A DNA stretch of 64,000 bases from an uncultured virus (IMG/VR IMGVR_UViG_3300044724_004089) (taxonomy: Duplodnaviria > Heunggongvirae > Uroviricota > Caudoviricetes): IMG/VR virus record IMGVR_UViG_3300044724_004089. One strand, given 5' to 3'. The position numbers were made by a program, and so were the translations under genes. Below, in pieces: positions 95 through 64,000 of the stretch; the stretch's first letter is position 1, and every line of letters begins with the position of its first letter. The notes beneath the pieces are model-generated. The model made no database searches. It was not told the origin of the DNA and worked only from the letters and a program-made list of their open reading frames with translations.

Positions 95-634
95 ATGAAA
101 AAAAATAAGAAAAAAAATGAGCATTATGTAGACAATGCAAAGTTTTTAGAGGCGATGAAAGAATACAAAGCATTGTGTGAGGACGCCGAAAAAAACGACA
201 AAGAGAAACCACTTGTAACTAATTATATTGGTGGTTGTTTTTTAAAAATTGCGAATCACTTATCGTATAGACCTAACTTTATTAACTATACGTTTAAAGA
301 TGATATGATATCTGATGGTATAGAAAACTGTTTACAGTATCTTGATAATTTTAATCCAGAAAAATCTAAAAATCCTTTTGCATATTTTACACAGATTATA
401 TACTATGCCTTTATAAGAAGAATACAAAAAGAAAAGAAACAAGTAATAATAAAACAAAAGTTATTAAGAGATTCTAATTTTGATGATTTAACATTGCAAC
501 CATCAGATGATGCTCAATATACAAATCAGTTTACAGAATTCTTGAGAGCAAATGCTACAGAGGAAGAACCAGAAAAGAAAAAGAAAGAACCAAAAAGAAG
601 AAATTTAAAAGGCAAATTAGACGAGTTTATTTAA
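95..634 (+). CDS. gp55: T4-like late transcription sigma factor gp55
   Basis: HYVDN..F, LSYRPNFINYT, MISDGIENCL, NPFAYFTQI motifs; sits upstream of gp47/gp46. Confidence 0.95.
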   Translation: MKKNKKKNEHYVDNAKFLEAMKEYKALCEDAEKNDKEKPLVTNYIGGCFLKIANHLSYRPNFINYTFKDDMISDGIENCLQYLDNFNPEKSKNPFAYFTQIIYYAFIRRIQKEKKQVIIKQKLLRDSNFDDLTLQPSDDAQYTNQFTEFLRANATEEEPEKKKKEPKRRNLKGKLDEFI

Positions 635-1680
635 TGAAAATTGCATTGTTGAATGACACACACTTTGGGTGTCGAAATGATTCACCTGCTTTTATGGAAT
701 ATCAAAACAAGTTTTATGATGATATTTTCTTTCCATATTTAAAAGAAAATAATATAAAATATTTGATACATTTAGGTGATGTTGTTGATAGAAGAAAATT
801 TATTAATCACAATATAGCACACAACTTTAGACAAAAGTTTTGGAAGAAGTTGTATAGAAATAATATTGAAACACATATTATATTAGGCAATCACGACACC
901 TATTATAAAAATACAAATGACGTAAATGCTATCACAAATTTAAGAATTAATGGTAATTCAAAAATCTATAAGAGTGCAGAGATTGTATCTTTTGATGGAT
1001 TAGATATATTGTTTGTACCTTGGATTTGTGATGATAACTATGATGAAACAGTAAAACTTGTTCAAAATTCTAGATGTGAAATACTAATGGGTCATTTAGA
1101 GATTAAAGGTTTTGAAATGCACAAAGGTCATTTCTCTGAACAAGGTTTAGATAAAACTATGTTTCAAGGTTATGATAAAGTTATATCAGGTCATTTTCAT
1201 AAAAAGTCAGATGATGGTCAAATATATTATCTTGGTACTCAATATGAAATAACTTGGTCAGATTATAAATGCCCGAAAGGTTTTCACATATTCGATACTG
1301 ATACCAGAGAGTTGACAAGAGTAGAAAATCCATATAGAATGTATAAAAAGATTATATACAACGATAAAGAAAAAAGTTATTCTAACTATGATATTCAGCA
1401 GTTTAATAAGTGTTTTGTTAAATTATACATTTCAAATAAAACTGATGAGGAAATGTATAACAAGTTTGTAGAAAGATTATATAATGAAATAGATGTACAC
1501 CAGTTACAAATAATAGATGACCCTATCGATATCAATTTAACTGTGAGTGATAACATTATAGATAAGGGTGAAGATACATTGACATTTTTAGATAATTATA
1601 TTGAACAGATAGATACCAAGTTAGATAAAAAGAAATTAAAAGACTATGCTAAAAATTTATATTATGAGGTAAGTGAATGA
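634..1680 (+). CDS. gp47: recombination endonuclease subunit gp47 (Mre11/SbcD-like)
   Basis: Metallophosphoesterase motifs DTHFG, LGDVVD, GNHD, SGHFH. Confidence 0.95.
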   Translation: MKIALLNDTHFGCRNDSPAFMEYQNKFYDDIFFPYLKENNIKYLIHLGDVVDRRKFINHNIAHNFRQKFWKKLYRNNIETHIILGNHDTYYKNTNDVNAITNLRINGNSKIYKSAEIVSFDGLDILFVPWICDDNYDETVKLVQNSRCEILMGHLEIKGFEMHKGHFSEQGLDKTMFQGYDKVISGHFHKKSDDGQIYYLGTQYEITWSDYKCPKGFHIFDTDTRELTRVENPYRMYKKIIYNDKEKSYSNYDIQQFNKCFVKLYISNKTDEEMYNKFVERLYNEIDVHQLQIIDDPIDINLTVSDNIIDKGEDTLTFLDNYIEQIDTKLDKKKLKDYAKNLYYEVSE

Positions 1681-2342
1681 ATATACACAAAGAATTTACT
1701 ATGGGTCAAACTGCTTTCTTATTTAAGTTACCAGAAAGTTTAATTAATGACATTAATAAAAAGATGGATGAAGAAATAAAAAATAATGAAATTAGAGATG
1801 CATCAGAACAATTATCCGCTAAAATAAAAAAAGAATATCAAATAATGCATTGGTTACCTGAAGTAGATAAAGATAAAATTTTCTTTAAATGTGTAAAAGA
1901 AGTAATGAGCAAAGCACAAATGTATACATCATTTAAAGCAAAGTCTGTTGTTATTGATAATGCTTGGATAAATGATCAAGTAGAACACGAGTATCAAGTT
2001 ATACACAGACACAGTGGACAATCTATTATAGGTTTTGCATCTATTTTATTTTTAAAAGTACCTGACTTTGGTCCTGAAGTAAATAGAAAAGATTTACCAC
2101 ATAACGGAAGAACAATGTTGATAGGTAATTGTCAAGGGCAATTCTGTAAGAAAAATATTATGATACAACCTGAAGTTGGTGATTTTTATATTTTTCCTTA
2201 TGACTTAGAACATATGGTTTATCCTTTTGTAGGTGATGGATTAAGAAGAAGTTTAAGTATAAATTATGATGTATTCCATCAAGCAGATGGTAAACAATAT
2301 AGGGCAATAAATAATGATAACTTTCGTCAAGTTAAAGTATAA
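1677..2342 (+). CDS. putative 2OG-Fe(II) oxygenase-like protein
   Basis: WIN..HRH, FP..LEHMVYP, RRSLSIN pattern typical of phage 2OG oxygenase-like proteins. Confidence 0.65.
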   Translation: MNIHKEFTMGQTAFLFKLPESLINDINKKMDEEIKNNEIRDASEQLSAKIKKEYQIMHWLPEVDKDKIFFKCVKEVMSKAQMYTSFKAKSVVIDNAWINDQVEHEYQVIHRHSGQSIIGFASILFLKVPDFGPEVNRKDLPHNGRTMLIGNCQGQFCKKNIMIQPEVGDFYIFPYDLEHMVYPFVGDGLRRSLSINYDVFHQADGKQYRAINNDNFRQVKV

Positions 2343-4574: not shown

Positions 4575-4797
4575 AACTTATGTTCACGTCAATCAACACG
4601 TTATACGAAGTAATAAAAAACATAACAAAAACGAACCAGTTATCACAGTTAAGAAAGGTTCTAAAAACACTTACTGTCACGAAGTCAAAATACTCGGTCC
4701 TAGTACCGTGGTTTATGGCGGTAATGATAAACCTCTTCTTTCTTGTGGTGCTAGAGTTGTCATTTCGACTGAATCAGATGTAGAGATTGTCAAATGA
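4555..4797 (+). CDS. hypothetical phage protein
   Basis: Overlapping, coupled ORF with coding-like composition; LLSCGARV C-terminal motif. Confidence 0.6.
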   Translation: MPRKTTKTYVHVNQHVIRSNKKHNKNEPVITVKKGSKNTYCHEVKILGPSTVVYGGNDKPLLSCGARVVISTESDVEIVK

Positions 4798-5933
4798 CAT
4801 ACAAACCATATAAACTACAAGATGTAATAGATGCATCTAATAAAGAACTATTTACAGTCATATCTACATTTGCAGGTGGTGGTGGTTCATCAACAGGTTA
4901 TAGATTAGCAGGTGCTAAAATACTTGCAATCAATGAGTTTGTTGATTCAGCAGTAGACACATATAAAGCAAACTATCCACAGACACCTGTATTACCTGGC
5001 GACATAAAAGAATTGACAGGTGAAGATTTATTAAAAACTGCAGGTGTTCAAAAAGGTGAACTAGATATTTTAGATGGTAGTCCACCTTGTTCTGCATTTA
5101 GTATATCAGGTAAAAGAGAAAAGGGTTGGAACTCAACAAAGAAATATTCTGATGACAAACAAGTAGAAAATATAGAAGATTTATTTTTTGAGTACATTAG
5201 AATAGCAAATGATATACAAGCAAAGGTTGTTATAGGTGAAAACGTAGCAGGTATTATGGTTGGTGATGCTAAAAAATATTTCAATAGAATCATAAATGCT
5301 TTTGATAAAATAGGTTATGAGGCGGTTGGTAAAGTGATGAACGCCGCTGACTTTGGAACACCACAAGCAAGACAAAGATGTTTTTTTGTAGCAGTAAGAA
5401 AAGATGTGATGGATACATTAGGGTTAAACTTTATGACAATGGAGGGTGAATTATATCCTAAACCAAATAGCACTCAACCTACGTTAAAAGATGCTATTGA
5501 TGATTTAGAGAATGATAAAGAAGAAGAACAGATGTTACTTGATTTTGTTCAAGGTTCTTTTCAAAAGAAGTGGATTGAATTGTTACCATTTAATCCAGAT
5601 AAACATAGAAAACCAAGTGATCCAGAATTTATAGACATAAATCCTAAAAGATCAATGTTTAATATGATTAGACCAGCACCAAACTTACCTTGTCCGACAG
5701 TTACACAAGCAGGTCAAAAGAAAGGTTTGTCTGGTGTGTTTCACTATAATAGTAATCGTAAATTAACGATAAAAGAATTAAAAAGAGTTATGGGTTTACC
5801 AGATGATTTTAAACTTGAAGGTGACTTTGATCAACAAGCAGAAAGAGTTGGTAGAATGGTAGCACCTCTAATGATGAAAGAGTTATCTGGTACCATATAT
5901 AAAAATATAATTAAACCATTTAATGATAGATAA
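4794..5933 (+). CDS. C5-cytosine DNA methyltransferase homolog, probable DNA cytosine carboxymethyltransferase (CmoX-like)
   Basis: Motif I FAGGGG, IV GSPPC, VI ENV, VIII QARQR; motif X reads VGRMV instead of GNxV; adjacent to a CmoA homolog. Confidence 0.85.
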   Translation: MTYKPYKLQDVIDASNKELFTVISTFAGGGGSSTGYRLAGAKILAINEFVDSAVDTYKANYPQTPVLPGDIKELTGEDLLKTAGVQKGELDILDGSPPCSAFSISGKREKGWNSTKKYSDDKQVENIEDLFFEYIRIANDIQAKVVIGENVAGIMVGDAKKYFNRIINAFDKIGYEAVGKVMNAADFGTPQARQRCFFVAVRKDVMDTLGLNFMTMEGELYPKPNSTQPTLKDAIDDLENDKEEEQMLLDFVQGSFQKKWIELLPFNPDKHRKPSDPEFIDINPKRSMFNMIRPAPNLPCPTVTQAGQKKGLSGVFHYNSNRKLTIKELKRVMGLPDDFKLEGDFDQQAERVGRMVAPLMMKELSGTIYKNIIKPFNDR

Positions 5934-6753
5934 ATTACTTCAAGATATAGTTGAAAAAGAATGCAAAGATAATGATGTAGCAGTTTTATTATCTGGTGGT
6001 GTCGATAGTAATAGTGTTTTATTTACTGCTAATCGTCTAGGTAAAATAGTGCATTGTTATTCTTTTCATTTAGACACAGGTTCATCATATGATTCTATAA
6101 AAGCACAAGAAGTATGTAATAAGTTTAATTTTGATTTAACACTAATAGAAGTGCCAACAAATAATTTAGAAAATGATTTTATAACACTTGCTGAAAAGTA
6201 TAAGTGTCAAAAGAAAACACATTTTGAATGCACGTTTCCATTTATGTATGTGTTTCCAAAAATAAAAGAAAAGTATGTGCTATCTGGTTGGGCGGCAGAT
6301 GGTCATTTTGGTTTAAGTAAAAAAGCAAGTTTGCATTACAAACACCCCAAAGAAAAGTTTGATAAGTTTAGAAGAGATTATTTTTCTGTAGAAAATCCAG
6401 TAGGGGTTAGACAAATAGAAATGTTATGCAAAGAACACAATAAAGTATTATCAGTTCCATATCTAGATAAAAAAGTTTTTGATTATTTCATACAGTTTGA
6501 CTGGGACACACTCAATAAACCCAAAGAAAAATACGAAGTTAGAAAATGCTTTCCAGAGTTTAATGAGATAAATCTTAAAAATCATTTAAATTTACAATTA
6601 ATTTCTAGGGTTGACAAAATATTTGAAACCTTGTTAACTAGTGAAAAGATTAATATTGGAAAGAGAAAAAGAGTTATGGATATTTGTAAAGACTGGTATA
6701 ATGTAAATAAAAACTTAAATAATCCAACTATACTTGAGGACAAGTTATTATGA
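5923..6753 (+). CDS. asparagine synthase-like ATP-dependent amide ligase (CmoY-like)
   Basis: PP-loop LLSGGVDS, LSGWAADGHFG, VPYLD..V, KPKEK; no glutaminase domain at 276 aa. Confidence 0.75.
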   Translation: MIDKLLQDIVEKECKDNDVAVLLSGGVDSNSVLFTANRLGKIVHCYSFHLDTGSSYDSIKAQEVCNKFNFDLTLIEVPTNNLENDFITLAEKYKCQKKTHFECTFPFMYVFPKIKEKYVLSGWAADGHFGLSKKASLHYKHPKEKFDKFRRDYFSVENPVGVRQIEMLCKEHNKVLSVPYLDKKVFDYFIQFDWDTLNKPKEKYEVRKCFPEFNEINLKNHLNLQLISRVDKIFETLLTSEKINIGKRKRVMDICKDWYNVNKNLNNPTILEDKLL

Positions 6754-7421
6754 AATTTACATTTGCACAATCAGAAGAAGGATTTGATAATCACATAGAT
6801 AAGTCTATTAGAGGTTATGCTGACTTATGGGGTGATGTTGTCAACATTGGTAAATACTTTATAGAAGATGATACTAACGTTGTAGATATAGGTTGTTCTA
6901 CAGGTAAACTTCAAAAGTCTATGATAAAATTGTATGAAGAACATATACCCAATGCTAAATACGTTGGTGTAGAAATAGAAGAAGACTTTTATAAAGATTA
7001 TCCTGTTGATGAATTGAAATACTCTAATCTAAAGTATTTTAGAGATGATGTAAGAAACTTTAAATTTACAAACTGTAGTTATGTAACATCTTTATTTACA
7101 TTACAATTTATGTCACCAAAGTCTAGAAAAGAAGTAATACAAAGTATATACAATGGTTTAAATACAGGTGGTGCATTTGTATTTTCTGAAAAAGTATTTG
7201 CACAAAACCCTAGAGTACAAGATATGATGACATTTATGTATTATGATCATAAAAGAAAAAACTTTACAGAAAAAGAAATATTAGATAAAGAAGTCCAGTT
7301 AAGACATATGATGAAACCAAACACAAAAAATGAATTGATAAAAATGTGTACTGATGCTGGATTTGAAACACAAACATTTTGGCAAAATTATAACTTTATA
7401 GGAGTGATAGCACTTAAATGA
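6750..7421 (+). CDS. cmoA: CmoA-like carboxy-SAM synthase
   Basis: FDNHIDKSIRGY, DIGCSTG, FTLQF, FSEK, QNYNF match the CmoA family. Confidence 0.8.
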   Translation: MKFTFAQSEEGFDNHIDKSIRGYADLWGDVVNIGKYFIEDDTNVVDIGCSTGKLQKSMIKLYEEHIPNAKYVGVEIEEDFYKDYPVDELKYSNLKYFRDDVRNFKFTNCSYVTSLFTLQFMSPKSRKEVIQSIYNGLNTGGAFVFSEKVFAQNPRVQDMMTFMYYDHKRKNFTEKEILDKEVQLRHMMKPNTKNELIKMCTDAGFETQTFWQNYNFIGVIALK

Positions 7422-8245
7422 AACAATTCTTTATACCAAATACTGTTACAGAATTTAGCAATGAAAATCCATTTGTATTGATAGCAGGTCCTTGTCAAGT
7501 TGAAAGTAAAGAACACGCAATACAAATATGTGGTTCATTATTAGAAATATCAATGTTATACAATATACCTTTAGTATATAAATCATCTTTTGATAAAGCA
7601 AATAGAACAAGTATCAATTCACAAAGAGGATTAGGTTTAGAAAAGTCTTTACAAGTATTTGAAGAAATACAAAAACAATTTAATGTACCTGTTGTTACAG
7701 ACGTTCACGAACCAGGTCAATGTAAAGAAGTAGCATCAGTGGTTAATATGTTACAGATACCAGCATTTTTATGTAGACAAACTGATTTACTTGTAGCATC
7801 AGCAGAAACACAAAAAACTGTAATGATTAAAAAAGGTCAGTTTATGGCACCTTGGGATATGAAAAATGTCATAGAAAAAATAAGTCATATAAATGATAAG
7901 ATAGTGTTATGTGAAAGAGGTACAAGTTTTGGTTATAATAGATTAGTTGCTGATATGACTTCTCTACCGATAATGAAAGAAACAGGTTATCCTGTTGTGT
8001 TTGATGCAACACATTCAGTACAACAACCAGGTGGTATGGGTGCAACATCTGGAGGTAATCGTGAGTTTGTACCTGTGTTGGCGAGATGTGCTATGACAAT
8101 AGGTATAGCAGGTATATTTATGGAAGTGCATCAAGATCCAGACAATGCACCAAGTGATGGACCTAATATGTTAAAGTTAGAAGATTTACAAGATTTACTA
8201 AAACAGTTATACGACATAGACGAAAGCACGAAAGGTGGGTTTTAA
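7418..8245 (+). CDS. kdsA: 3-deoxy-D-manno-octulosonate 8-phosphate (KDO8P) synthase
   Basis: AGPC, KSSFDKANRTS, QIPAFLCRQTDL, KKGQF, FDATHSVQ, SDGPN. Confidence 0.95.
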   Translation: MKQFFIPNTVTEFSNENPFVLIAGPCQVESKEHAIQICGSLLEISMLYNIPLVYKSSFDKANRTSINSQRGLGLEKSLQVFEEIQKQFNVPVVTDVHEPGQCKEVASVVNMLQIPAFLCRQTDLLVASAETQKTVMIKKGQFMAPWDMKNVIEKISHINDKIVLCERGTSFGYNRLVADMTSLPIMKETGYPVVFDATHSVQQPGGMGATSGGNREFVPVLARCAMTIGIAGIFMEVHQDPDNAPSDGPNMLKLEDLQDLLKQLYDIDESTKGGF

Positions 8246-9387
8246 TGGATAAAGAGGTCAAAAGAATATATGATGCAGAAATAAATAGACAATCACAAAC
8301 CATAGAGTTAATAGCATCTGAAAACTTTGCAAGTCAGGCAGTAAAGAAATTATGTGGTTCAGAGTTTACAAATAAGTATGCTGAAGGTTATCCAGGTAAG
8401 AGATACTACAATGGTTGTGAGTATATGGATCAAATAGAACAACTTGCAATAGATGAATTAAAAAAGTTATATAACTGTGAATATGCTAACGTGCAACCTC
8501 ATTGTGGTGCAAATGCAAATACTGCCGTCTATCAAGCATTTTTGAAACCAGGTGATACAATACTTGGTATGGATTTAGCATCAGGTGGTCATTTAAGTCA
8601 CGGTTCTAAACCTAATATATCAGGTAAAATATATGATGCACATTATTATGGTGTCGATAAAGATGGTTGGTTAGATTACAATGCAATTAAAGAACAAGCA
8701 AAGAAACTAAAACCAAAGATGATAGTTGCAGGTGCTAGTGCATACTCTAGACAAATACATTGGTATATCTTCAGAGAGATAGCAGATGAGGTAGGTGCAT
8801 ATCTATTATGTGATATGGCACATTACTCTGGACTAATAGCAGGTGGTAGTTATGATAATCCAGTTCCTCACGCAGACGCAGTTACATCAACTACACATAA
8901 AACATTGAGAGGTCCAAGAGGTGGTATAATCTTATGGGATAATGATGAACATACTAAAAAGATAAATTCTGCTATCTTTCCTGGTACACAAGGTGGTCCT
9001 TTGATGAATATGATCGCCTCAAAAGCACAAGCATTTAAAGAGGCGAATACAACAGAATTTAGACAATACATTCAAAATGTAATCAATAATGCAAAAGCAA
9101 TGGCAGAAGTATTCATAGAGAATGATTTTAATGTATTGACAGGTGGTACTGATAGTCATATGATGCTGATAGATTTAAGTGATAAAAAGTATTCTGGTAG
9201 AGAATCAGCAGATAAACTAGAAGAAATGGGTATTACAGTCAATAAGAATGGTATACCTAATGATCCTAGAAGTTTTGTAGAAACATCAGGTATTCGTATA
9301 GGAACTGCCGCCGAAACAACAAGAGGTAGACCAGCAAGTTGGTTTCGTGATGTTGCTAAAAGAATAATAAACATCATTACACTGTGA
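8245..9387 (+). CDS. glyA: serine hydroxymethyltransferase
   Basis: LIASEN, NKYAEGYPGKRYY, GGHLSHG, STTHKTLRGPRGG (PLP lysine), FPGTQGGP. Confidence 0.97.
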   Translation: MDKEVKRIYDAEINRQSQTIELIASENFASQAVKKLCGSEFTNKYAEGYPGKRYYNGCEYMDQIEQLAIDELKKLYNCEYANVQPHCGANANTAVYQAFLKPGDTILGMDLASGGHLSHGSKPNISGKIYDAHYYGVDKDGWLDYNAIKEQAKKLKPKMIVAGASAYSRQIHWYIFREIADEVGAYLLCDMAHYSGLIAGGSYDNPVPHADAVTSTTHKTLRGPRGGIILWDNDEHTKKINSAIFPGTQGGPLMNMIASKAQAFKEANTTEFRQYIQNVINNAKAMAEVFIENDFNVLTGGTDSHMMLIDLSDKKYSGRESADKLEEMGITVNKNGIPNDPRSFVETSGIRIGTAAETTRGRPASWFRDVAKRIINIITL

Positions 9388-9985: not shown

Positions 9986-10033
9986 ACATTTTTCTGATAA
10001 CATTACATTTTAACTAATTTGAAAGGGACAATT

Positions 10034-11164
10034 ATGTCAAAACTATATGATGAAAACGTATTCTCCTACTACCAAGAGAGTAATAGCAAAAATCTGATAA
10101 CAGTAGACAAAGAAACATTATTGAATTTATTAATGATTAAAGATGCTTATATTAATCTAGAGAAAAACTATAATGTAAAAGTAACTAAAGATTTACTTGA
10201 TGTTAATGATATTGCAATAGTAGAAAGCAATAATATTGCTCAAGCATACGGAAATGACCAATCTATTATAAATGAGTATATGAATTTGTTTGCTACACGA
10301 ACTTATAATCCTTTTTATGCATTTCCTCCTGTTGTAGTTTCAACAAAACATATGAAAAATATATTAGTGTTGTATGCTACTTTAGGTGGATTTAAGAGAA
10401 TTAAAGCACTAAAAAGAGCAGTTGAAAAAGGATTGTGTGAAAATAAAATGATACCTGTAATTAAAGTTGATATCGAAGAAACAGATGAAAGAGTGATAAG
10501 AGAAATAGAACTAAAAATTAACAGTGTTGAAAATGCTGAAGATTCAGTTAAGAAGATTGAAAAAACAACTAGAGATATAGATTCTATTGCTAACTCTGTA
10601 AATGCATATATAAGAGAAGTAAAACTTTTAAATCCTAAAGATGATAATATTCCAGAGAGTGTTTATAGAGATTGTTTGTCTATCTTTGAGTATGATCTAC
10701 AAAAAAGTAAATATAGTTTACCAGACATAATAACTAGATGTAGAAGAAATGTTGGGTGTAAAGTTCCAGTTTTAAAAAGCACTTCAGAGATGACTGATTT
10801 GGCAAGAAATTCATCAAATGTTGAAGATTATTGTAGAGAAAATGGTTTTAAAAAACCTCTTATAGTTGCTTACAATAAGAAAAATGGTGCAATTTCCAAT
10901 AAAGATTTACCATTGAAGTATTTGAACTCAAAACTAAAAGCAGAAAAAGAAAACTATGATGCAATTTTTTGTATCGTTCAACATACAGGTGTGACATCAA
11001 AAGTTGCAAATGAACACAAGAAAAAGTATCTTAATTATGAAAATAGTCAAGAAAGCACTAGTAACAACTTTAAACAAGTTGCTAACAGTAATGTGCCTGT
11101 AATTATGGGTGTTTGTTTAGATGATGAAATTACTTTGCAAAGTGAGAATTACAATGCAGAATAG
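10034..11164 (+). CDS. hypothetical protein with ParB/Srx-like domain
   Basis: PPVVV...YATLGGFKRIKAL...IPVIKV...VEN resembles the ParB N-terminal fold; RBS GAAAGGGA favours the ATG at 10034. Confidence 0.45.
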   Translation: MSKLYDENVFSYYQESNSKNLITVDKETLLNLLMIKDAYINLEKNYNVKVTKDLLDVNDIAIVESNNIAQAYGNDQSIINEYMNLFATRTYNPFYAFPPVVVSTKHMKNILVLYATLGGFKRIKALKRAVEKGLCENKMIPVIKVDIEETDERVIREIELKINSVENAEDSVKKIEKTTRDIDSIANSVNAYIREVKLLNPKDDNIPESVYRDCLSIFEYDLQKSKYSLPDIITRCRRNVGCKVPVLKSTSEMTDLARNSSNVEDYCRENGFKKPLIVAYNKKNGAISNKDLPLKYLNSKLKAEKENYDAIFCIVQHTGVTSKVANEHKKKYLNYENSQESTSNNFKQVANSNVPVIMGVCLDDEITLQSENYNAE

Positions 11165-11750
11165 TTTAAATTATTTCAATGCAACAAACCCCAAAGTTAT
11201 AGGATTGTTAATAGATCAAGATAAATCAATAAGAAATAATGTTTTAAAACTTAAATCGGTAAGAAAGACAATGATCTGGAATAAACCATATCGTGATAAG
11301 TGTGTGCAGACAGATGATGTACACGGATTAAGAACAATTTATCACGATATATTCTTTGGTAAAATTAGTGAATGTAAAATATATACAGGTGTTCAAAGTG
11401 TTGCAGATTTAGAAAGTAATAATACAAAATCTACTGGAGAACATATTTTTCCTTCGTTTGGGATGGCACCATATTTTTATGATAATGTAAATAATTGGTC
11501 TGAAGAGAAGTTTTTAAAAAATGCATTACCATTATGTCTTGTTAGTAAAACAACAAGTCAACAAAACACAGATTTATCAAATCAAAAAAATGTTTTGATA
11601 CTAGATAAGTATGAAGTCGCAAATATAGAATGTTATTTTTGTGATGAATACTCTTCTCAAATTGGTTTACCTAAATGTATAAAGGATTTATTACCAATAG
11701 AGTTAATTGAATATGATAGAAAAAATATCAAAAAAGGGGTTGACATTTGA
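11154..11750 (+). CDS. hypothetical protein, possible HNH-like nuclease
   Basis: GEHIFP...LCLV...QN..LSN resembles a His-Me finger (DUF1524-like); overlaps the upstream ORF. Confidence 0.4.
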   Translation: MQNSLNYFNATNPKVIGLLIDQDKSIRNNVLKLKSVRKTMIWNKPYRDKCVQTDDVHGLRTIYHDIFFGKISECKIYTGVQSVADLESNNTKSTGEHIFPSFGMAPYFYDNVNNWSEEKFLKNALPLCLVSKTTSQQNTDLSNQKNVLILDKYEVANIECYFCDEYSSQIGLPKCIKDLLPIELIEYDRKNIKKGVDI

Positions 11751-17135: not shown

Positions 17136-19622
17136 ATGAATTTTTACAAGAATGTGATTGTACACAGAGGCAAACTTCTGATTAGAGGTGTGTTGAATGG
17201 TAAAGAGTATCAAGAAAAACTTGACTTCAGTCCCACACTTTATGTATTGTCTAATGAACAAACAGAATACAAAACACTTCAAGGTCAAAACTTAAAACCT
17301 ATACGACTTAATTCTATTGCTGATGCTAAAAGATTTAAGAAAGAAGTAGAAACACAGAACTCACCAATCTTTGGTTTAGATAGATTTCACTATCAGTATA
17401 TTGGTCAAGAATATCCTGGTAGAATAGAATGGTCTAGAGAATACATTAAAATATTTACATTAGATATCGAAACAACTTGTGAGGCAGGTTTTCCTGATGT
17501 TGAAAACCCAACAGAAGAATTAATTTGTATTACAATTAAAAATCAATCTAACAAACAAATAATTACTTGGGGTGTTGGTGACTTCTATCACGATAGAGAT
17601 GATGTGACTTATGTAAAATGTAAAAGTGAAAATGAATTGTTAATGCAGTTTATGATGTTCTGGACCAAAAATTATCCTGACGTAATTTCCGGGTGGAATA
17701 CTAAATTTTTCGATTTACCATATCTAATGAATAGAATAAGACATTTACACGGTGATAAAGTAATCAATAAATTATCGCCTTGGAAACTAATTCAAAGAGA
17801 TGAAATAGAAGTTAGAGGTAAAGTACAAACTGTTTATAACTTGTATGGTATTGTTATGTTAGATTATCTTGATCTATATAGACAATACATACCACAGAAA
17901 CCTGAAAGTTATAAACTAGATCACATTGGTGAAATTGAACTAGGTCAAAATAAAAATGAAAACCCTTACGATACATTTAAAGAGTTTTATGAAAAAGATT
18001 TTCAAAAGTTTGTAGACTACAATATACAAGATGTTGAACTTGTTGATGCTCTTGAAGATAAGTTACGTCTTATAGATTTAGCATTAACTATTGCGTATGA
18101 AAGTAAAGTAAACTATGGTGATATATTTTCACAAGTTAGATTATGGGATACGTTGATTGCAAATCACTTAATGACAAAAAAGATATGTGTTCCACCACGA
18201 GAAGATCAAGTAAAAGAAACAAAGTATGTTGGTGCATATGTAAAAGAACCCAAACCTGGTTTATTTAAATGGGTCGTATCATTCGATATTAATTCTCTAT
18301 ACCCACATATTATTATTCAGTATAATATATCACCAGAAAAAATCATAGGTGCAGAGAAAGGATTGTCTGTAGAAAAAATGTTAGAAGGTAAATCTATGTT
18401 ATCTTATCTAGAAACAGAGGGTGCTTGTATCACCCCAAACGGTGCAAAGTTTAAAACAGATAGTCAAGGTTTCTTACCAGAGATGATGGAAACAATGTAT
18501 CAAGAACGTGTCATATACAAAAATAAAATGCTTGATGCTAAAAAACAAAAAGAAAAAACAAAAGATGTTAAATTAGATAATGAAATATCACGATATCACA
18601 ATATTCAATGGGCGAGAAAGATTGCATTAAATAGTGCTTATGGTGCCATTGGTAATCAATACTTTAGATATTATGATGTAAAACAAGCAAGTGGTATTAC
18701 AACTGCTGGTCAGTTTATTATTCGTTTTATAGAAAATAAAATGAATGAGTATTTAAACAACGTGTTACAAACACAAGGTAAAACTGATTATGTTGTTGCG
18801 TCAGATACCGATAGTATATATGTTGTTTTAGATAAACTTGTAGAGAAAACTTGTCAAGGTAAAACCAATGACCAAATATTAAATTTTTTAAATAAAGTAT
18901 GCGATAGTAAATTAGAACCATACATAGAAAAGTGTTTTGATGAACTAGCAAGATACACTAATGCATACAAAAATGCTATGGTTATGAAACGTGAAGTTAT
19001 ATCCAATAAAGCAATATGGGTTGCAAAGAAAAGATATATGATGAATGTTTTAGATGAAGAGGGTGTTCGTCTTTCTAAACCTAAATTAAAAATTATGGGT
19101 ATTGAGGCAGTAAAATCTTCAACACCTCAAGTGTGTCGTGGTAAAATTAAAGAGGCGATAAACATTATTATGAATAAAGATGAGAGTGCTTTGCAAAACT
19201 TTATTCAAGATTTTAAGCAAGAGTATTTTAAATTATCTGCTGAACAAGTTTCTTTCCCTAGGTCTTGTAATAATCTTAAAAAGTATAGGTCATCTAAAGA
19301 TATTTTTATCAAAGGGTCACCTATTCACGTTAAGGGTGCTTTGATATATAATTATCAAATACAAAAAATGAAATTGCAAAACAAGTATCCTTACATACAA
19401 GAGGGTGATAAGATTAAGTTTGTTAAGTTACTAGAGCAAAATCCATTTAGATTTGATGTTATAAGTTATGTAACTAAATTACCTACAGAATTCAAACTAC
19501 AGAAATGCATTGATTATGAAGTACAATTTCAAAAGACATTTCTTGATCCTATGCGTTTCATACTTGAGGCAATTGGTTGGTCAGCAGAAAAACAAGCAAC
19601 ACTGGAGGATTTTTTTCAATGA
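17136..19622 (+). CDS. gp43: family B DNA polymerase gp43
   Basis: Exonuclease DIET, GWN..FD, YNIQD; polymerase SFDINSLYP, KIALNSAYG, SDTDS. Confidence 0.97.
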   Translation: MNFYKNVIVHRGKLLIRGVLNGKEYQEKLDFSPTLYVLSNEQTEYKTLQGQNLKPIRLNSIADAKRFKKEVETQNSPIFGLDRFHYQYIGQEYPGRIEWSREYIKIFTLDIETTCEAGFPDVENPTEELICITIKNQSNKQIITWGVGDFYHDRDDVTYVKCKSENELLMQFMMFWTKNYPDVISGWNTKFFDLPYLMNRIRHLHGDKVINKLSPWKLIQRDEIEVRGKVQTVYNLYGIVMLDYLDLYRQYIPQKPESYKLDHIGEIELGQNKNENPYDTFKEFYEKDFQKFVDYNIQDVELVDALEDKLRLIDLALTIAYESKVNYGDIFSQVRLWDTLIANHLMTKKICVPPREDQVKETKYVGAYVKEPKPGLFKWVVSFDINSLYPHIIIQYNISPEKIIGAEKGLSVEKMLEGKSMLSYLETEGACITPNGAKFKTDSQGFLPEMMETMYQERVIYKNKMLDAKKQKEKTKDVKLDNEISRYHNIQWARKIALNSAYGAIGNQYFRYYDVKQASGITTAGQFIIRFIENKMNEYLNNVLQTQGKTDYVVASDTDSIYVVLDKLVEKTCQGKTNDQILNFLNKVCDSKLEPYIEKCFDELARYTNAYKNAMVMKREVISNKAIWVAKKRYMMNVLDEEGVRLSKPKLKIMGIEAVKSSTPQVCRGKIKEAINIIMNKDESALQNFIQDFKQEYFKLSAEQVSFPRSCNNLKKYRSSKDIFIKGSPIHVKGALIYNYQIQKMKLQNKYPYIQEGDKIKFVKLLEQNPFRFDVISYVTKLPTEFKLQKCIDYEVQFQKTFLDPMRFILEAIGWSAEKQATLEDFFQ

Positions 19623-20773
19623 TAAAATTATATAATGACGATTGTTTAAAGATAGTAGAAAAATTAGTAGATGAAGGTATACAAGTTGATTCGATTGTAA
19701 CTGACCCACCATATCATCTGACATCTATTGTAGAAAGATATGGTAAAGAAGGTTCTGCACCAGCAAAAGACAAAGATGGTTTATTTCAAAGACAGTCAAA
19801 AGGTTTTATGGGTAAAGAATGGGATGGTGGTGATATTGCGTTTAGAGAAGAAACTTGGGAACTTTTTATGAAAGTATTGAAACCAGGTGGTCATCTACTT
19901 GCGTTCTCTAGTAGTCGAACATATCATAGAATGGCAGTTGCGATAGAAGATGCTGGTTTCAGTATTCGTGATCAGATTATGTGGTTATATGGTAGTGGGT
20001 TTCCGAAGAGTTTAAATATAGGAAAAGCAGTAGATAAGAAATTAGGTAATAAAAGAGAAGTAATTGGAACTAAAGAATGTGGTTATCAAGTTAGTATTTC
20101 TAAAACTAGAAAAGAACAAGGTAATAGACCAAATTTAACTAATGCAACTAAAGAAGTGATTGTCGACAAGGGAGATACAGAATATGAGGGTTGGGGAACT
20201 GCATTGAAACCAGCACACGAACCTATCGTTCTTGCAAGAAAACCACTATCCGAAAAATCTATCGTTGCAAATGTACTAAAACATAAAACTGGTGGAATAC
20301 ATATAGATGCGAGTAGAATTGAATACGCAGATGAAAATGATAGAAGTGGGTGGCATAAAACTGGTGGTGGTGGAAAAGGTTATATGGACACAAGTACATT
20401 TAAAATAAGAAAGATAACACCAGAGGAAATACAAGAGAGAACAAAGAATGGTAGGTTTCCAGCAAATGTAATGCATAATGGATTAGAAGAAGATTGGGCG
20501 AGATACTTCTATTGTGCTAAAGCATCAAAGTCTGAAAAGGGTGATAATCCACACCCAACAGTAAAACCATTAAAGTTAATGAAATACTTATGTAAATTAA
20601 TTACACCAAAGGGTGGGACAGTATTAGACCCATTTATGGGAAGTGGTTCTACTGGTATAGCATCAAAAGACGAAGGGTTTGAGTTTATAGGTATTGAAAG
20701 AGAAAAAGAGTATTTTGAGATTGCAGAAAAAAGAATAAATATAACATCACCTTTAGAGAGTTTTATGAAATGA
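19619..20773 (+). CDS. N6-adenine/N4-cytosine DNA methyltransferase (beta class)
   Basis: DPPY near N-terminus; HPTVKP and DPFMGSGSTG near C-terminus. Confidence 0.92.
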   Translation: MIKLYNDDCLKIVEKLVDEGIQVDSIVTDPPYHLTSIVERYGKEGSAPAKDKDGLFQRQSKGFMGKEWDGGDIAFREETWELFMKVLKPGGHLLAFSSSRTYHRMAVAIEDAGFSIRDQIMWLYGSGFPKSLNIGKAVDKKLGNKREVIGTKECGYQVSISKTRKEQGNRPNLTNATKEVIVDKGDTEYEGWGTALKPAHEPIVLARKPLSEKSIVANVLKHKTGGIHIDASRIEYADENDRSGWHKTGGGGKGYMDTSTFKIRKITPEEIQERTKNGRFPANVMHNGLEEDWARYFYCAKASKSEKGDNPHPTVKPLKLMKYLCKLITPKGGTVLDPFMGSGSTGIASKDEGFEFIGIEREKEYFEIAEKRINITSPLESFMK

Positions 20774-21010: not shown

Positions 21011-22318
21011 TTGATAACATTAGGAATCTCAGAGGGGTTTCATAATTCGTCTGTCTGCTATGTAGAGGACGGTGAAATATTGTTTGCTTCAGAATCAGAA
21101 AGATATACTGGTAATAAAAATGATAGGTGGGTACCAGGTGACATATTAGATATGTATGAATGTGACAATATGGTTTATTATGAAAAACCATTTAAAAAAA
21201 ATATTAGAAGACTTTTAGCAGGTCAGTCGTGGGAAAAAACTAGATTTAAATATGATAACTACTACTCACATCATTTATCTCACGCCGGCGCAGGTTATTA
21301 CACTGCACCATTCGAAGATTGTAATATATTAGTTATAGATGCTATTGGTGAATGGGAAACAATAACAATATGGGACAATCTAAAAAAGATTAGGTCGTGG
21401 TCGTATCCATATTCTCTAGGATTATTATATTCAGCAGTAACACAATATTTAGGATTTAAACCAAACGAAGAAGAATATATTGTTATGGGTATGTCAGCAT
21501 TTGGTGAACCCATTTATAATTATGAATATTTGTTATATGAAAATAATCATAGAGGTATAAAATTTTTAAAAGGTAAACCAGAAGATATCGCCGCCTCAAT
21601 ACAAAAATTATATGAAGATGAGTTGTTAAAATTGGTAAAGATGTGTCCGAAGAAAAACTTAATACTTATGGGTGGTTGTGCTTTAAATTGTGTTGCTAAT
21701 AGTAAAATCAAAGGTAAGAACATTTGGATTATGCCATCACCCGGTGATGCAGGTAGTTCTTTAGGTGCATCAGCATTGAAACAAGGTAAGATTAATTGGA
21801 AACACCCATATTTAGGTTATGATATTAGCAGACATATAAACCCTAAAGAAGTTGTAGATGATTTATTAGAAAATAAAATAGTAGGTGTAGCAAATGGTAG
21901 AGCAGAATTTGGACCTAGAGCATTAGGTAATCGTTCTTTATTAGGTGACCCTAGATATGATATCAAAGATACTGTTAACACAATTAAAAGAAGACAAAAG
22001 TTTAGACCTTTTGCACCTGCAATATTAGAAGAGTTTGCAGATGAATATTTTGAAGGTCCTATGAATCGTTATATGCAGTTTGTATCAAAAGCAAAACACG
22101 ACTACAAATCAGTAACTCACGTTGACAATACTGCAAGAGTTCAAATAGTAGAAAAAGATTGTAAATCTGTAATAAGACCTATACTTGAAGAGTTTTATGA
22201 AAGAACTAAAGTTCCTATGTTGTTAAATACATCTTTAAATATAAAAGGTAAACCTATGGTAAATACAGAGAAAGATGCTAATAAGTTTACAGAAAGATAT
22301 AATGTAAATGTCTGGTAA
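21011..22318 (+). CDS. carbamoyltransferase (NodU/CmcH family)
   Basis: HNSS, HHLSHA, DAIGE, GGCALNC, EFGPRALGNRS, FRPFAP, HVDNTARVQ, LNTSLN. Confidence 0.93.
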   Translation: MITLGISEGFHNSSVCYVEDGEILFASESERYTGNKNDRWVPGDILDMYECDNMVYYEKPFKKNIRRLLAGQSWEKTRFKYDNYYSHHLSHAGAGYYTAPFEDCNILVIDAIGEWETITIWDNLKKIRSWSYPYSLGLLYSAVTQYLGFKPNEEEYIVMGMSAFGEPIYNYEYLLYENNHRGIKFLKGKPEDIAASIQKLYEDELLKLVKMCPKKNLILMGGCALNCVANSKIKGKNIWIMPSPGDAGSSLGASALKQGKINWKHPYLGYDISRHINPKEVVDDLLENKIVGVANGRAEFGPRALGNRSLLGDPRYDIKDTVNTIKRRQKFRPFAPAILEEFADEYFEGPMNRYMQFVSKAKHDYKSVTHVDNTARVQIVEKDCKSVIRPILEEFYERTKVPMLLNTSLNIKGKPMVNTEKDANKFTERYNVNVW

Positions 22319-48955: not shown

Positions 48956-49706
48956 TTTTAATGAAAAGTTATATCATTATTATGCACATAGATTTTTAGA
49001 ATCATACAATCTACCATTTAATCTACACATTTATCACGAAGGTTGGACACCTGAAGATTTTCCATTAAGAGATAATATACATTACATTGATATCAATTCA
49101 GGTAAAAATGGAAATGAGTTAAGAAAATTTAAAGCAAGGATGAGTGGTTACAATGTAGATAGTGTTGTACCCGGCGAACCACAAAAGATAATTCACGGAA
49201 CAAATTATAAAAAAGACGGCATTAGATTTGCTTACAAAGTTTTTGCTAAAACAGATTTGATGACAAATGGTAAAACAAATTATGATTATGTATTTTGGAT
49301 TGATGCTGATATGATATTTAAAAAATCATTCAATGCAAAAGATGTTGTAGAAAAGTTTTTACCAGGAGATTATCAAATCTCTCATATACACAGACCAACA
49401 TATTATAGTGAATGTGGTTTTGTAGGATATAATTTAAGACACTGGCAAACAAGAGTATTTGTTCAAAGATTTAGAGAGATGTATACTCATTTAAATCTAT
49501 TAACAGAAAAAGAGTGGCACGATAGTTATTTGTTTGATGTAGTTAGAAAAAAATTAACAAAAGAATTAAACGGTGATATAAAGTTTTATAATTTATCACC
49601 AACTATAAGAAAAGTTGGCAATCCTTGGCCAGATACACCAATGGCAGAATATATGGACCATCTAAAAGGTAAAGCAAGAAAAGATGCAGGAGAAATGTTA
49701 AAATGA
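48933..49706 (+). CDS. GT-A glycosyltransferase-like protein
   Basis: RFAYKV, WIDAD, ECGF, WHDS, DHLKG. Confidence 0.65.
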   Translation: MKIGIVTSFNEKLYHYYAHRFLESYNLPFNLHIYHEGWTPEDFPLRDNIHYIDINSGKNGNELRKFKARMSGYNVDSVVPGEPQKIIHGTNYKKDGIRFAYKVFAKTDLMTNGKTNYDYVFWIDADMIFKKSFNAKDVVEKFLPGDYQISHIHRPTYYSECGFVGYNLRHWQTRVFVQRFREMYTHLNLLTEKEWHDSYLFDVVRKKLTKELNGDIKFYNLSPTIRKVGNPWPDTPMAEYMDHLKGKARKDAGEMLK

Positions 49707-57124: not shown

Positions 57125-57914
57125 GAACGCATCATTTAAAATAAAAGAGGCACCAGAGGTAATTGATTTTGTCAAAAAGAAGAGATACGATTATCATAGA
57201 TTTTTAAATTGTTTAAGTGAATCATTTTACAGATACAATCCAGATGGTAAATTAATATTGTCCACAGATAATCACACAAATCCATCAGGTTATGAGGGTC
57301 ATTATTATAGACAAGACACTGATGAAAAAACTATCATACAATCTAAAGTTTACAATGAAACGAAATTTATATGTGATGACAATGGGTATGATGAGAATAT
57401 AATTATGTGTGGAACAGACCATCTTATCAATAGAAACTTAGATAAGTTGTTTTTAAATCAAGACTTTGATATTAAGATACCTATAAGAAAAGGTACACGA
57501 GTTAACAATGCTATGATAGTTGTAAAGAAAGTTACAGATAATGTTAAGAGATTTTTTGATTATCGTTATGAAAGATTTATACAGAAGAACAAAGACCCAC
57601 ATTGGGACTGGTATGGTGACCAAAGAACATATGATAATATTTTAAGAGAAGAATTACATCTATTACCTGTTCGTGACCCACCTCAAAAATTTGATTACAA
57701 ATTAGGTTCATACATTGTTAGAGGTTGTAAAATAAAATTAATCGAATATGGTGGTAACGAATGCGGTAGTTTTGATATATGGCCACACCATAGAAGAGGG
57801 TTTGAAGATAATACTTACTTCTACGATTTTAAAGGTAAAAGAAAAGCATATTTTTTCACATCATACGAAAAGGAAAGGAGAAACTATGAACGAAAAAAAG
57901 AAAAAAATTTATGA
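57099..57914 (+). CDS. nucleotide-sugar transferase-like protein
   Basis: GTDHL, VNNAM, WYGDQ, FKGKRK; located in the glycan island. Confidence 0.55.
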   Translation: MVYLVPFYKNASFKIKEAPEVIDFVKKKRYDYHRFLNCLSESFYRYNPDGKLILSTDNHTNPSGYEGHYYRQDTDEKTIIQSKVYNETKFICDDNGYDENIIMCGTDHLINRNLDKLFLNQDFDIKIPIRKGTRVNNAMIVVKKVTDNVKRFFDYRYERFIQKNKDPHWDWYGDQRTYDNILREELHLLPVRDPPQKFDYKLGSYIVRGCKIKLIEYGGNECGSFDIWPHHRRGFEDNTYFYDFKGKRKAYFFTSYEKERRNYERKKEKNL

Positions 57915-60761: not shown

Positions 60762-60777
60762 TAAAAGGAGATACACT

Positions 60778-61050: not shown

Positions 61051-61090
61051 TATAATAATATAAACAATAAATGATTCGAAAGGACTAAAT
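61025..61090 (+). promoter_or_regulatory. early promoter with TGATTCG
   Basis: TTGACA-17-TAATAT; TGATTCG at 61072-61078 fused to the GAAAGGA RBS. Confidence 0.65.
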
Positions 61091-61300: not shown

Positions 61301-61307
61301 GAATAAA

Positions 61308-61715: not shown

Positions 61716-61729
61716 ACTATAATTATATT

Positions 61730-62253: not shown

Positions 62254-62695
62254 TGTATTGCTAGTAAATTGTGCTAGTCGTTCACAGAAAGGTGCTATTA
62301 TAGGTGGAGCATCAGGTACAGGTACTTGTGTATCTTTAGGTGTGCAGAACCCCTATCTAGCATCTGTATGTGGTTTGATAGGTGCATTTGCTGGTGCTGA
62401 ACTAATGTATAATGATGATTATGATGTACACAATGCTACATTTGTAGATCATTTAAATAATGGTCCTCAAGGGGCATCATACACAAATTGGTATAATCCA
62501 AATACAAAAAACAGTGGTATTATTCATACTACTAGGTCTTATATGAAAGGACCAATTAAGTGTAAAGATTACAGTGCAACAGTTGATGTAACTAATCAAT
62601 GGCCTGTATTAGGTTATGGTACTGCACCTACAAGAGAAGTAGTACACGGAATTGCGTGTCAATTACCAGATGGGAGGTGGTTTGAATATGAATAG
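62216..62695 (+). CDS. lipoprotein with glycine zipper (17-kDa surface antigen-like)
   Basis: Lipobox LVNC, GAIIGG/GLIGAFAG zipper, W.NP...SG, C.DY...V, G.ACQ.PDG.W. Confidence 0.75.
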   Translation: MKFVNLIWILLISVLLVNCASRSQKGAIIGGASGTGTCVSLGVQNPYLASVCGLIGAFAGAELMYNDDYDVHNATFVDHLNNGPQGASYTNWYNPNTKNSGIIHTTRSYMKGPIKCKDYSATVDVTNQWPVLGYGTAPTREVVHGIACQLPDGRWFEYE

Positions 62696-63068
62696 TTTAT
62701 TAAAAATAATGCTGATAGCATTTTTTATATTGTTATGTGTTATAGCAATAGTGAGAGATAGTGATGCTGGAGATGATGTATTGTATAGTGAAATTGTGCC
62801 TTCACCAAGAAACGTTGATGGTCAACACTGTTTAATAAAACAAATTATTAAAAAGAGTGGTGACACCATAATCAAAGAAGAAATTATGGAATGTAGTGAT
62901 GGTAGAAAAAGAATGGACGGTCCTAGTTATTGGGGATTGTTTGCTGAATTTTACTATAGAGATGTATCTGCACCTGAATATTGTAGATATTATAGTAGAG
63001 ATCGTCACGCATTTAAGTCGCACGGCAAAACTTGTTTAAAAACTAACGGAAGGTGGGAAATCAAATGA
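62688..63068 (+). CDS. exported Cys-containing hypothetical protein
   Basis: N-terminal signal/TM; C-terminal CRYY...CLKTNGRW similar to the upstream lipoprotein tail. Confidence 0.6.
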   Translation: MNSLLKIMLIAFFILLCVIAIVRDSDAGDDVLYSEIVPSPRNVDGQHCLIKQIIKKSGDTIIKEEIMECSDGRKRMDGPSYWGLFAEFYYRDVSAPEYCRYYSRDRHAFKSHGKTCLKTNGRWEIK

Positions 63069-63232
63069 TAAAGAACTTGATTATAATAGGTCTTATAACT
63101 TGGTTGATTTATGTTATAGGATACAAACAATTTTTCAATGGTATACGAACTACGGTTGACAAAGTTGAAGAATTGGTAGATAATAAAGACAAATTAATTG
63201 ATAATTTAGATATTGAAAGTGAGGAAGAATAA
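63065..63232 (+). CDS. small membrane protein (not in ORF track)
   Basis: 55 aa, MIKNLIIIGLITWLIYVIG..., coupled on both sides. Confidence 0.6.
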   Translation: MIKNLIIIGLITWLIYVIGYKQFFNGIRTTVDKVEELVDNKDKLIDNLDIESEEE

Positions 63233-63852
63233 TGAAATATATTATGTTAATAGTGATAGTTAGTTTACTTGGTGCTTGTTCTAGTATGGGTAACTACAAA
63301 ATAAAAAGTGAGAGTGGTGATGTTGTCAATACAGTACCAAAGTGGTATATGGCAGACATTAAAGAGTCAAGGGCGTGTGATACTTCTATGTTCACAAAGA
63401 AAGACGATAATAAAGTATGTATCTATGGTATGGGTACTGCCGTTTCACCTAGTTTAGATTTAGCAGTAGAAAAAGCAAAACTAAAAGCAAAAGCAGAACT
63501 TGCCGATTTAGTTAAAGGTGAAATGAATAAGCAGTCAAAAGCATATGCGAAAGAAGTTGGTCAGAGTGCTAATAATAAACAAGTAGCAAATGATTTTGAA
63601 ACAGTAACAGTCAATGAAATCAAAGCAACTGTTGTAAAAGGTTATGAAGTCTTTGAGCAAGATGTTACATTGACACAAAACGGAAACTATAGGGCGTGGG
63701 TTGGTTTGAGATTACCTCTTGGTGAGTTTAATAAATTGCATAATTATAATGCAGATGAGATTTTAAATTCATACAAAATAGAAGATAAGTCACAAGAGGC
63801 ATACTCGAACCTTATGAAAGAAGGTTCAAATGAAAATAGAAATATTCAGTAA
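63232..63852 (+). CDS. LPP20-like lipoprotein
   Basis: Lipobox LGAC, VPKWY, G.GTAVS, A.EKA...AKAELA. Confidence 0.75.
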   Translation: MKYIMLIVIVSLLGACSSMGNYKIKSESGDVVNTVPKWYMADIKESRACDTSMFTKKDDNKVCIYGMGTAVSPSLDLAVEKAKLKAKAELADLVKGEMNKQSKAYAKEVGQSANNKQVANDFETVTVNEIKATVVKGYEVFEQDVTLTQNGNYRAWVGLRLPLGEFNKLHNYNADEILNSYKIEDKSQEAYSNLMKEGSNENRNIQ

Positions 63853-64000
63853 ACCTAACTGCATCTATTGTGATAAATCCAAGACTCTGTTAAAGGGTCT
63901 TGGATTGTCGTATGTTGAGAACAGTATCAATGATTACAACACTAAACAAGAGTTTTTAGAGGCGATTGGTAAACGTGTCAAAACTGTACCTCAAATTAAA
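63830..64000 (+). CDS. nrdC: glutaredoxin (NrdC-like), truncated by window end
   Basis: MKIEIFSKPNCIYC...KTVPQI. Confidence 0.88.
   Translation, partial: MKIEIFSKPNCIYCDKSKTLLKGLGLSYVENSINDYNTKQEFLEAIGKRVKTVPQIK

Follow-up and report, generated by a model that had tools for sequence, protein, structure and literature searches.

The subject of this report is a 64,000-nucleotide stretch of an uncultured tailed phage (IMG/VR record IMGVR_UViG_3300044724_004089; the whole stretch is called the window below), in which about 15 short restriction-like words are missing or nearly missing. An original prediction, made by eye from the letters of the window, described codon choices that avoid GCWGC, RGCY and CATG and, for the most part, GAAGC; the list obtained here is longer. 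We believe with considerable confidence that the purge reflects selection against site-specific cleavage, if the claim is stated in this general form. As to the cause, the reading we favour and consider probable is that many restriction endonucleases with short sites (4-6 bp) are involved, most likely spread over the natural host strains (a "pan-immune" set of restriction-modification, or R-M, systems); cleavage would then be the selective agent, and the nucleases would be encoded by the hosts.

Depleted words in the window

In the complete 64 kb, CATG, AGCT, AGCC/GGCT, GCWGC, GAAGC and CGCG do not occur at all, GCTTC occurs once (21086), GCGC twice, and RGCY three times, every time as GGCC (49627, 57781 and 62601). 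A first-order Markov model gives expectations of 242 for CATG, 148 for AGCT, 131 for AGCC/GGCT, 53 for GAAGC/GCTTC and 29 for GGCC. AGCT, AGCC, GGCT, CATG and GCWGC had been described as not seen, and a lone GCTTC had been noticed; the full count agrees on each of these, and the effect is stronger than was claimed. The joint loss of AGCT, GGCC and AGCC/GGCT is exactly the loss of RGCY. A general avoidance of AGC/GCT was considered and is ruled out, as AGCA/TGCT is plentiful (610 occurrences) and the loss is confined to specific contexts.

The main null model consisted of 200 permutations of synonymous codons over 20,000 codon slots, with the proteins and the overall codon usage fixed. The mean count (the lowest shuffle is given in brackets) was 129.7 (112) for CATG, 115.8 (95) for AGCT, 100.4 (83) for AGCC/GGCT, 30.8 (25) for GCWGC, 55.8 (43) for GAAGC/GCTTC and 17.2 (8) for GGCC; none of the 200 shuffles approached the observed counts of these core words. 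For CATG, RGCY, GCWGC and GAAGC together, synonymous shuffling predicts approximately 450 occurrences, and 4 are seen. Ratios near 1 under control for protein sequence and codon bias had been named beforehand as the outcome that would speak against avoidance; the ratios found in the shuffles are far below 1.

The purged words are gone from all three codon phases, from both strands and from non-coding DNA. For instance, CATG is absent at codon start positions 1, 2 and 3 (49.7, 39.1 and 41.1 expected, respectively) and also from the 3.8 kb outside singly covered genes, where the sequence is non-coding or overlapping (12.1 expected). The last 40 bases of the window match exactly an identical public contig that continues for 4.8 kb past its end, and this extension contains neither CATG (16 expected) nor RGCY (26.6 expected); no extending contig was found by exact match to the first 40 bases. 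Because the words are absent in all three phases and in non-coding DNA, codon-pair or translational causes are excluded.

The synonymous character of the purge can be seen in codon context. All 33 Ala-Ala pairs begin with GCC (20) or GCG (13), yet GCA and GCT make up 843 of the 969 Ala codons. His is encoded by CAC in 89 of 89 cases ahead of a codon starting with G, and elsewhere by CAT (233) or CAC (96); none of the 488 codons preceding Met ends in C. All 44 Glu-Ala pairs are GAG-GCN, although GAA accounts for 1046 of 1361 Glu codons, and the 44 Ser codons AGC all have A as the next base. The Ala-Ala, His and Glu-Ala rules had been proposed from a limited number of examples and hold here without exception. 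Avoidance of GCWGC has a visible cost, namely runs of rare codons: because of it GCCGCC/GGCGGC is in excess (24 seen against 0.6 expected from codon shuffles). The window contains exactly three Trp-Pro dipeptides, and these are its three GGCC sites, as had been suspected; the sites survive because Trp-Pro offers no synonymous escape. The remaining core-word sites are the following.

49626..49631, + strand: surviving GGCC in TGG-CCA (Trp-Pro), not removable synonymously
57780..57785, + strand: surviving GGCC in TGG-CCA (Trp-Pro), not removable synonymously
62600..62605, + strand: surviving GGCC in TGG-CCT (Trp-Pro), not removable synonymously
21086..21090, + strand: sole GCTTC, in GCT-TCA (Ala-Ser) of the carbamoyltransferase gene, an unforced exception

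Further words were sought against a second null, in which synonymous codons were resampled (60 samples) with CATG, RGCY, GCWGC and CGCG forbidden. Counts in the window and expectations from this null are as follows.

AGCG/CGCT: 9 seen, 104 expected
GAAGC/GCTTC: 1 seen, 52 expected
CTWAG: 11 seen, 67 expected
CTSAG: 8 seen, 36 expected
GAGAC/GTCTC: 5 seen, 45 expected
CGATG/CATCG: 4 seen, 42 expected
ACAGC/GCTGT: 5 seen, 40 expected
GGATG/CATCC: 19 seen, 62 expected
GCGC: 2 seen, 15 expected

Several palindromes of 6 bp are also depleted: AGATCT (0 seen, 19 expected), AGTACT (0 and 12.6), CTTAAG (0 and 8.7), TACGTA (0 and 7.4), GTGCAC (0 and 4.4) and CTGCAG (2 and 7.6). With the core words forbidden, AGCG, CTNAG, GAGAC, CGATG, ACAGC, GGATG, GCGC, AGATCT, AGTACT, CTTAAG and TACGTA together give approximately 460 expected and 63 seen occurrences. 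The depleted set consists mostly of short palindromes or type IIS-like words. Of the 16 palindromic 4-mers, 5 are purged, compared with 2 of the 120 non-palindromic classes (Fisher P 2e-4); among 6-mers free of core words, the figures are 6 of 31 palindromes and 39 of 1533 others (P about 2e-4). Many of the depleted words coincide with what we take to be the sites of NlaIII, AluI, HaeIII, CviJI, TseI/BbvI, DdeI, BsmAI, FokI, HhaI, BglII, ScaI, AflII, SnaBI, ApaLI and PstI.

Two of the words survive in one orientation: each of the 19 GGATG (e.g., at 1766, 11461 and 16022) and of the 4 CGATG is on the + strand, while CATCC and CATCG are absent (14 and 10.4 expected). One-way orientation of sites is the expected outcome of evading a type III-like enzyme.

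Some other words deserve mention. ACAGGG, ACCCTG and CCCTGA are near zero in the window, as are CCTAAG, CCTTAG, CCTCAG and CCTGAG; CAGGG is also purged in the related phage Mosig (3 seen, 94 expected). CAGGG/CCCTG and CCTNAGG-like words may represent further specificities. The Shine-Dalgarno-like words AGGA, GGAG and AAGGA and runs of five or six A are rarer in genes than in codon shuffles, an ordinary feature that has nothing to do with the restriction-like words.

The explanation that no selection on sites is involved, and that the pattern comes from mutation bias (e.g., methylcytosine deamination), codon-pair preference or an artefact of sequencing or assembly, is to be considered at this point. 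CpG is indeed generally low (observed/expected 0.46), and AGTT/AACT, which deamination of AGCT could yield, is in excess. But a bias of this kind would have to produce exact zeros against 100-130 expected occurrences, in every codon phase and in non-coding DNA, with only the protein-forced GGCC sites left; it would also have to purge CTTAAG and AGTACT, in which we know of no target of cytosine methylation. An artefact is opposed by the intact reading frames and by IMG/VR contigs from two metagenomes, which are 100% identical to the window across the matched genes; moreover, basecalling errors would not be synonymous. The zeros relative to shuffles, the codon-context rules and the absence in all phases already contradict this explanation, and we consider it hardly tenable.

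Word loss in related phages

The window has a G+C content of 30.7%, and 80 of its 82 selected open reading frames (ORFs) are on the + strand. In the DNA polymerase and ribonucleotide reductase regions it is 74-76% identical at the nucleotide level to Mosig and HTVC008M, two T4-like Pelagibacter phages of the Kyanoviridae; the core proteins of Mosig and the window are 56-82% identical. By this kinship the phage is presumably marine and T4-like, with a host in SAR11/Pelagibacter. A scan of bacterial genomes with the serine hydroxymethyltransferase (SHMT) gene as a clue to the host gave a single metagenome-assembled genome (MAG) at 54% identity, which is uninformative.

Expected counts in relatives are based on the first-order Markov model only, and the sets of contigs were gene-anchored and are phylogenetically non-independent. 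Mosig (141 kb) retains 374 CATG, 790 RGCY and 126 GCWGC and is purged of other words: it has no ACGT (249 expected), no CGCG (28 expected) and 19 GATC (307 expected). All 19 GATC in Mosig (MT647606.1) lie within GGATCC, which suggests that GATC is tolerated solely where a GGATCC-specific modification could cover it. The Mosig record starts inside its own methyltransferase gene, and homologues of UvsX and the gp41 helicase were not found in it by tblastn; the deposited genome may lack a segment. In a 50 kb piece of HTVC008M, TCGA is absent (53 expected) and RGCY is at approximately one fifth of expectation, while in pieces of the cyanophages S-B43 and S-RSM4 CCGG is near zero and RGCY is low. 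AGCT, GGCC and AGCC/GGCT are depleted jointly in the HTVC008M and S-B43 pieces as well.

A broader set was anchored on a Mosig-like capsid gene and comprised 57 contigs, each at least 5.5 kb long; a word was called purged if its count was no more than 10% of expectation. In 45 of these contigs one or more 4-bp palindromes are purged (TCGA in 21, CATG in 20, ACGT in 15 and GATC in 12), and RGCY is purged in none of the 57. A further 124 loci of at least 10 kb, taken from three gene-anchored sets, show RGCY ratios no lower than 0.17. Thus, loss of CATG is common in this group of phages, and complete loss of RGCY and GCWGC is seen solely in the window phage. Certain pairs of purges recur in the capsid-anchored contigs, namely ACGT with GATC (the Mosig type) and CATG with TCGA; such pairs might identify phages with hosts in common.

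The window and Mosig were also compared over 12 pairs of orthologous genes (4779 aligned codons, 72.5% amino-acid identity). Mosig carries 127 words purged from the window in these pairs, and at 60 of the 127 the window has identical amino acids; the window in turn carries 37 ACGT or GATC, and at 22 of them the amino acids are identical in Mosig. The two genomes are therefore reciprocally recoded in a synonymous manner.

We base the conclusion on selection against site-specific cleavage on four observations: the zeros in every phase and in non-coding DNA, the excess of palindromes, the survival of only the forced sites and the sets of words specific to lineages. Cleavage selection, as it was originally inferred, fits all the tests; the accompanying view of the purge as a fingerprint of host R-M systems is an interpretation, and other sources of the nucleases are weighed below.

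Possible sources of cleavage and the DNA enzymes of the window

Under the reading that we favour, each site would expose incoming or replicating DNA to a possible double-strand break; variants encoding the same protein without the word would win, and codon choice would grow dependent on the neighbouring codon. The survivors would be sites that cannot be removed without changing a protein, such as GGCC at Trp-Pro. Hypermodification of GpC by the products of CmoX, CmoY and CmoA (the genes are described below) would form a second, chemical layer of protection.

We lean towards R-M systems across a diverse SAR11 population as the most economical source of the nucleases, because such a source covers many unrelated specificities and accounts for differing sets in phages from the same laboratory strain. 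A 2026 survey describes defence systems including R-M as scattered (found in 46 of the 321 SAR11 genomes and in 8 of the 24 cultured strains) and under-represented in MAGs (PMC13712998). According to another study, RGCY is the motif most often methylated in marine viral MAGs (9 V-MAGs; PMC8919816); other marine phages therefore protect the same word chemically.

A number of points weigh against this reading. Fifteen or more separate specificities are many for one phage. The cognate nucleases of the purged words are putative, and we know of no restriction enzyme for GAAGC, ACAGC, AGCG or CGATG. The host is assigned purely by the similarity to Mosig and HTVC008M and is thus a putative one. R-M has been reported in one SAR11 genome in more than 100 (PMC7029224), in none of eight SAR11 MAGs (PMC9516812), and as "rare in SAR11" (bioRxiv 10.1101/2022.09.19.508504). 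Finally, the majority of the fully purged words include a GpC, and CmoX of the phage itself ought to protect these already; it is plausible that the GC words were purged despite the modification since the latter would be incomplete or delayed in replicating DNA.

The nuclease could also be the phage's own. Two ORFs had been proposed as putative nucleases, the second of them being quoted at 11154.

38161..39576, + strand: orphan protein with a predicted HinP1I/MspI-type restriction-endonuclease fold in the C-terminal ~300 residues; candidate phage-borne nuclease
11151..11750, + strand: rare ORF with no family and no nuclease fold

The family and fold searches gave no nuclease fold for the latter, and this part of the proposal is abandoned. 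The 38161 protein fares better and is still a candidate. Its top two Foldseek matches are HinP1I, its language-model neighbours fall in the RE_HaeIII, MspI and HinP1I clusters (at 0.82-0.84), and E216, D296 and S310-x-K312 are invariant in 32 homologues, which would be compatible with a putative PD-(D/E)XK site. No nuclease family was assigned to it by Pfam, PHROGs function, NCBIfam, PADLOC or a PDB profile search. Compared with the monomeric type IIP enzymes HinP1I and MspI, it has no sequence similarity, no neighbouring methylase and an additional N-terminal region of ~150 residues. The family is widespread on marine myovirus contigs, where the homologue usually lies between the gp41 helicase and a module of DUF6267, AAA_33 kinase and cytidylyltransferase.

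It is tempting to propose that this putative short-site nuclease degrades host DNA and that the phage is spared by the absence of target words, with help from GpC hypermodification; host DNA would be degraded for nucleotides, and phage DNA would stay untouched. In addition to the predicted fold, the language-model neighbours and the invariant residues, this is favoured by the lack of a DNA methyltransferase next to the gene (a Pfam scan of 53 flanking ORFs of 29 related loci and the two flanking ORFs of the window found none), and by the GC within most fully purged words, as in what we take to be the sites of HinP1I, HhaI and HaeIII. If true, it would be a cytosine-DNA counterpart of the T4 combination of hydroxymethylcytosine with endonucleases II and IV, or "restriction without a cognate methylase". 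A single nuclease could not account for fifteen or more unrelated words, though, and both catalysis and specificity of the 38161 protein are putative. Presence of a homologue does not predict the purge either: at 41 loci with homologues the RGCY ratio is 0.22-1.13 (median 0.89) and any purged 4-mer is found at 10. A tie between the 38161 family and some one purged word was looked for, and no association was found. We regard self-avoidance as unlikely; it is unlikely to the same extent that the phage tells self from host by site absence, a scheme that would bring together the candidate orphan nuclease without a partner methylase, the GpC module and the erased GC words.

Another possibility is that the nucleases come from other mobile elements in the host cell (co-infecting phages, prophages or satellites), so that the purge records conflict between elements. 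R-M is scarce in SAR11 chromosomes, and genes with a predicted restriction-endonuclease fold do occur in these phages. According to PMC8919816, each marine myovirus-like V-MAG has between 0 and 6 methyltransferase genes, with RGCY, CCWGG and GGWCC methylated, and their motifs are seldom common to prokaryotic MAGs of the same sample. Against this, no complete phage-borne R-M pair is present at the loci examined, and the present data do not distinguish such a source from R-M of the host; we think the proposal quite improbable.

The modification genes of the window form a cluster at 4794-9387, in which CmoX, CmoY and CmoA are followed by KDO-8-P synthase and then SHMT. These and the other genes of interest are listed here.

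4794..5933, + strand: CmoX homologue, predicted DNA cytosine-C5 carboxymethyltransferase at GpC (PDB 8yf3_A, SpCmoX, E 7.5e-115, residues 5-374)
5923..6753, + strand: CmoY-like ATP-dependent amide ligase of asparagine-synthase fold (52% identity over 267 amino acids to S-B43 CmoY; Pfam Asn_synthase)
6750..7421, + strand: CmoA-like carboxy-SAM (carboxy-S-adenosylmethionine) synthase (52% identity to S-B43 CmoA; NCBIfam TIGR00740 107.6 bits, below the cut-off of 193)
8245..9387, + strand: SHMT
10019..11164, + strand: ParB_N-like protein 3' of the CmoX cluster (weak structural leads)
19577..20773, + strand: beta-class N6/N4 DNA methyltransferase adjoining the DNA polymerase gene

Two methyltransferases had been predicted originally. 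The beta-class N6/N4 enzyme stands; the supposed C5 methyltransferase appears, from the 8yf3_A match, to be a carboxymethylating homologue of CmoX type. In the alignment to 8yf3_A it keeps GSPPCSAFS (with the SPPC catalytic motif) and ERVGRMV, where Arg (VGRMV) replaces the Asn of ordinary C5-methylases (motif X); its identity to the S-B43 gene is 51.6%. According to the S-B43 paper (PMC12783734), the cytosine of GpC is carboxymethylated at C5 and glycine is then ligated to give 5-glycylcarboxymethylcytosine, ~75% of GC sites are modified, 5-carboxymethylcytosine (5cxmC) blocked HhaI, 5,615 candidate CmoX genes are listed in phages, and ParBc proteins are noted on many CmoX phage contigs. The names of the CmoX homologues gave no hint of specificity. 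The three genes are adjacent in both phages, in the order X-Y-A in the window and A-Y-X in S-B43, with ~52% identity and with SPPC and the carboxymethyl-binding Arg shared; by this homology the gene set of the window would be a new member of an already known system. Unlike in S-B43, the predicted Cmo system of the window coexists with the complete purge of many GC-containing words. SHMT could supply glycine for the CmoY step. A protein of SAM-methyltransferase fold at 41330-42094 faintly resembles the carboxy-SAM-dependent enzyme CmoB (E 4e-5) and may be a further consumer of the CmoA product.

Could the purge of GC words (RGCY, AGCG, GCGC, CGCG and GCWGC) be a by-product of CmoX, such that only well-modified GpC contexts are tolerated? 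The contexts GCA and TGC hold 1194 of the 1290 GpC in the window, modification in S-B43 is incomplete as quoted above, and RGCY is low in the S-B43 piece also. Still, GGCG/CGCC, with no TGC and no GCA in it, is in excess (84 occurrences, 36 expected), and GCAGCA, GAAGCA and ACAGCA are purged though they lie in "allowed" tetranucleotide contexts; CATG, CTNAG, GAGAC and other words without GC are left unexplained. Each of the 53 other CmoX loci that are at least 10 kb long retains RGCY (median observed/expected 0.73, lowest 0.17). We consider this by-product very improbable. A single "GCA/TGC only" rule for GpC is ruled out by the GGCG/CGCC enrichment, and a link between the CmoX gene and the purge is ruled out as well, considering that the 53 other loci keep RGCY and that the purged sets differ.

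Known systems and significance

The window phage is an extreme case of a known anti-defence strategy, restriction-site avoidance. In the classic cases Staphylococcus phage K lacks GATC, Bacillus phages lack GGCC, and T7 carries its EcoP15I sites in one orientation. The synonymous removal of short palindromes throughout the genome and on both strands, with a lineage-specific set of words, is shared with them. The number of words is far larger in the window (at least five fully purged 4-5-mers and about ten strongly depleted words), its presumed hosts belong to a group in which little R-M has been reported, and the window phage also has DNA hypermodification genes.

Chloroviruses encode the R-M enzymes CviJI (RGCY) and CviAII (CATG), which degrade host DNA while cognate methylases protect the virus. 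Two fully purged words of the window coincide with their sites; the comparison is by specificity and not by homology. Chloroviruses have cognate methylases, whereas no cognate pair was found in the window, where protection would be by site absence.

The nearest case in SAR11 phages is GANTC, which is depleted in some pelagiphage clades and partitions the phage phylogeny, with no R-M in the host MAGs, according to Seong et al. 2022 (PMC9516812). Depletion of a motif in SAR11 phages despite no R-M found in host MAGs is common to both. That report concerns one motif and mainly podoviruses; in the window GANTC is just mildly low (84 against 153 expected), and other words are purged. We are aware of no description of multi-motif site avoidance in pelagimyophages in the literature searched, the scope of which did not extend to subscription journals and supplementary files.

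In total, approximately 900 potential sites have been given up in 64 kb, or about one per 70 bases. SAR11 bacteria are among the most abundant in the sea and have been described as almost free of R-M; the phage genomes suggest otherwise. The coexistence of GpC hypermodification genes with a complete purge of GC sites raises the question of how much protection the modification gives. The word lists provide concrete specificities to seek in SAR11 islands, single-cell genomes, methylomes and co-infecting elements, as well as a marker for sorting uncultured phages by shared hosts. The purges are an indirect but quantitative sign of strong and diverse pressure from short-site nucleases on pelagimyophages in nature.

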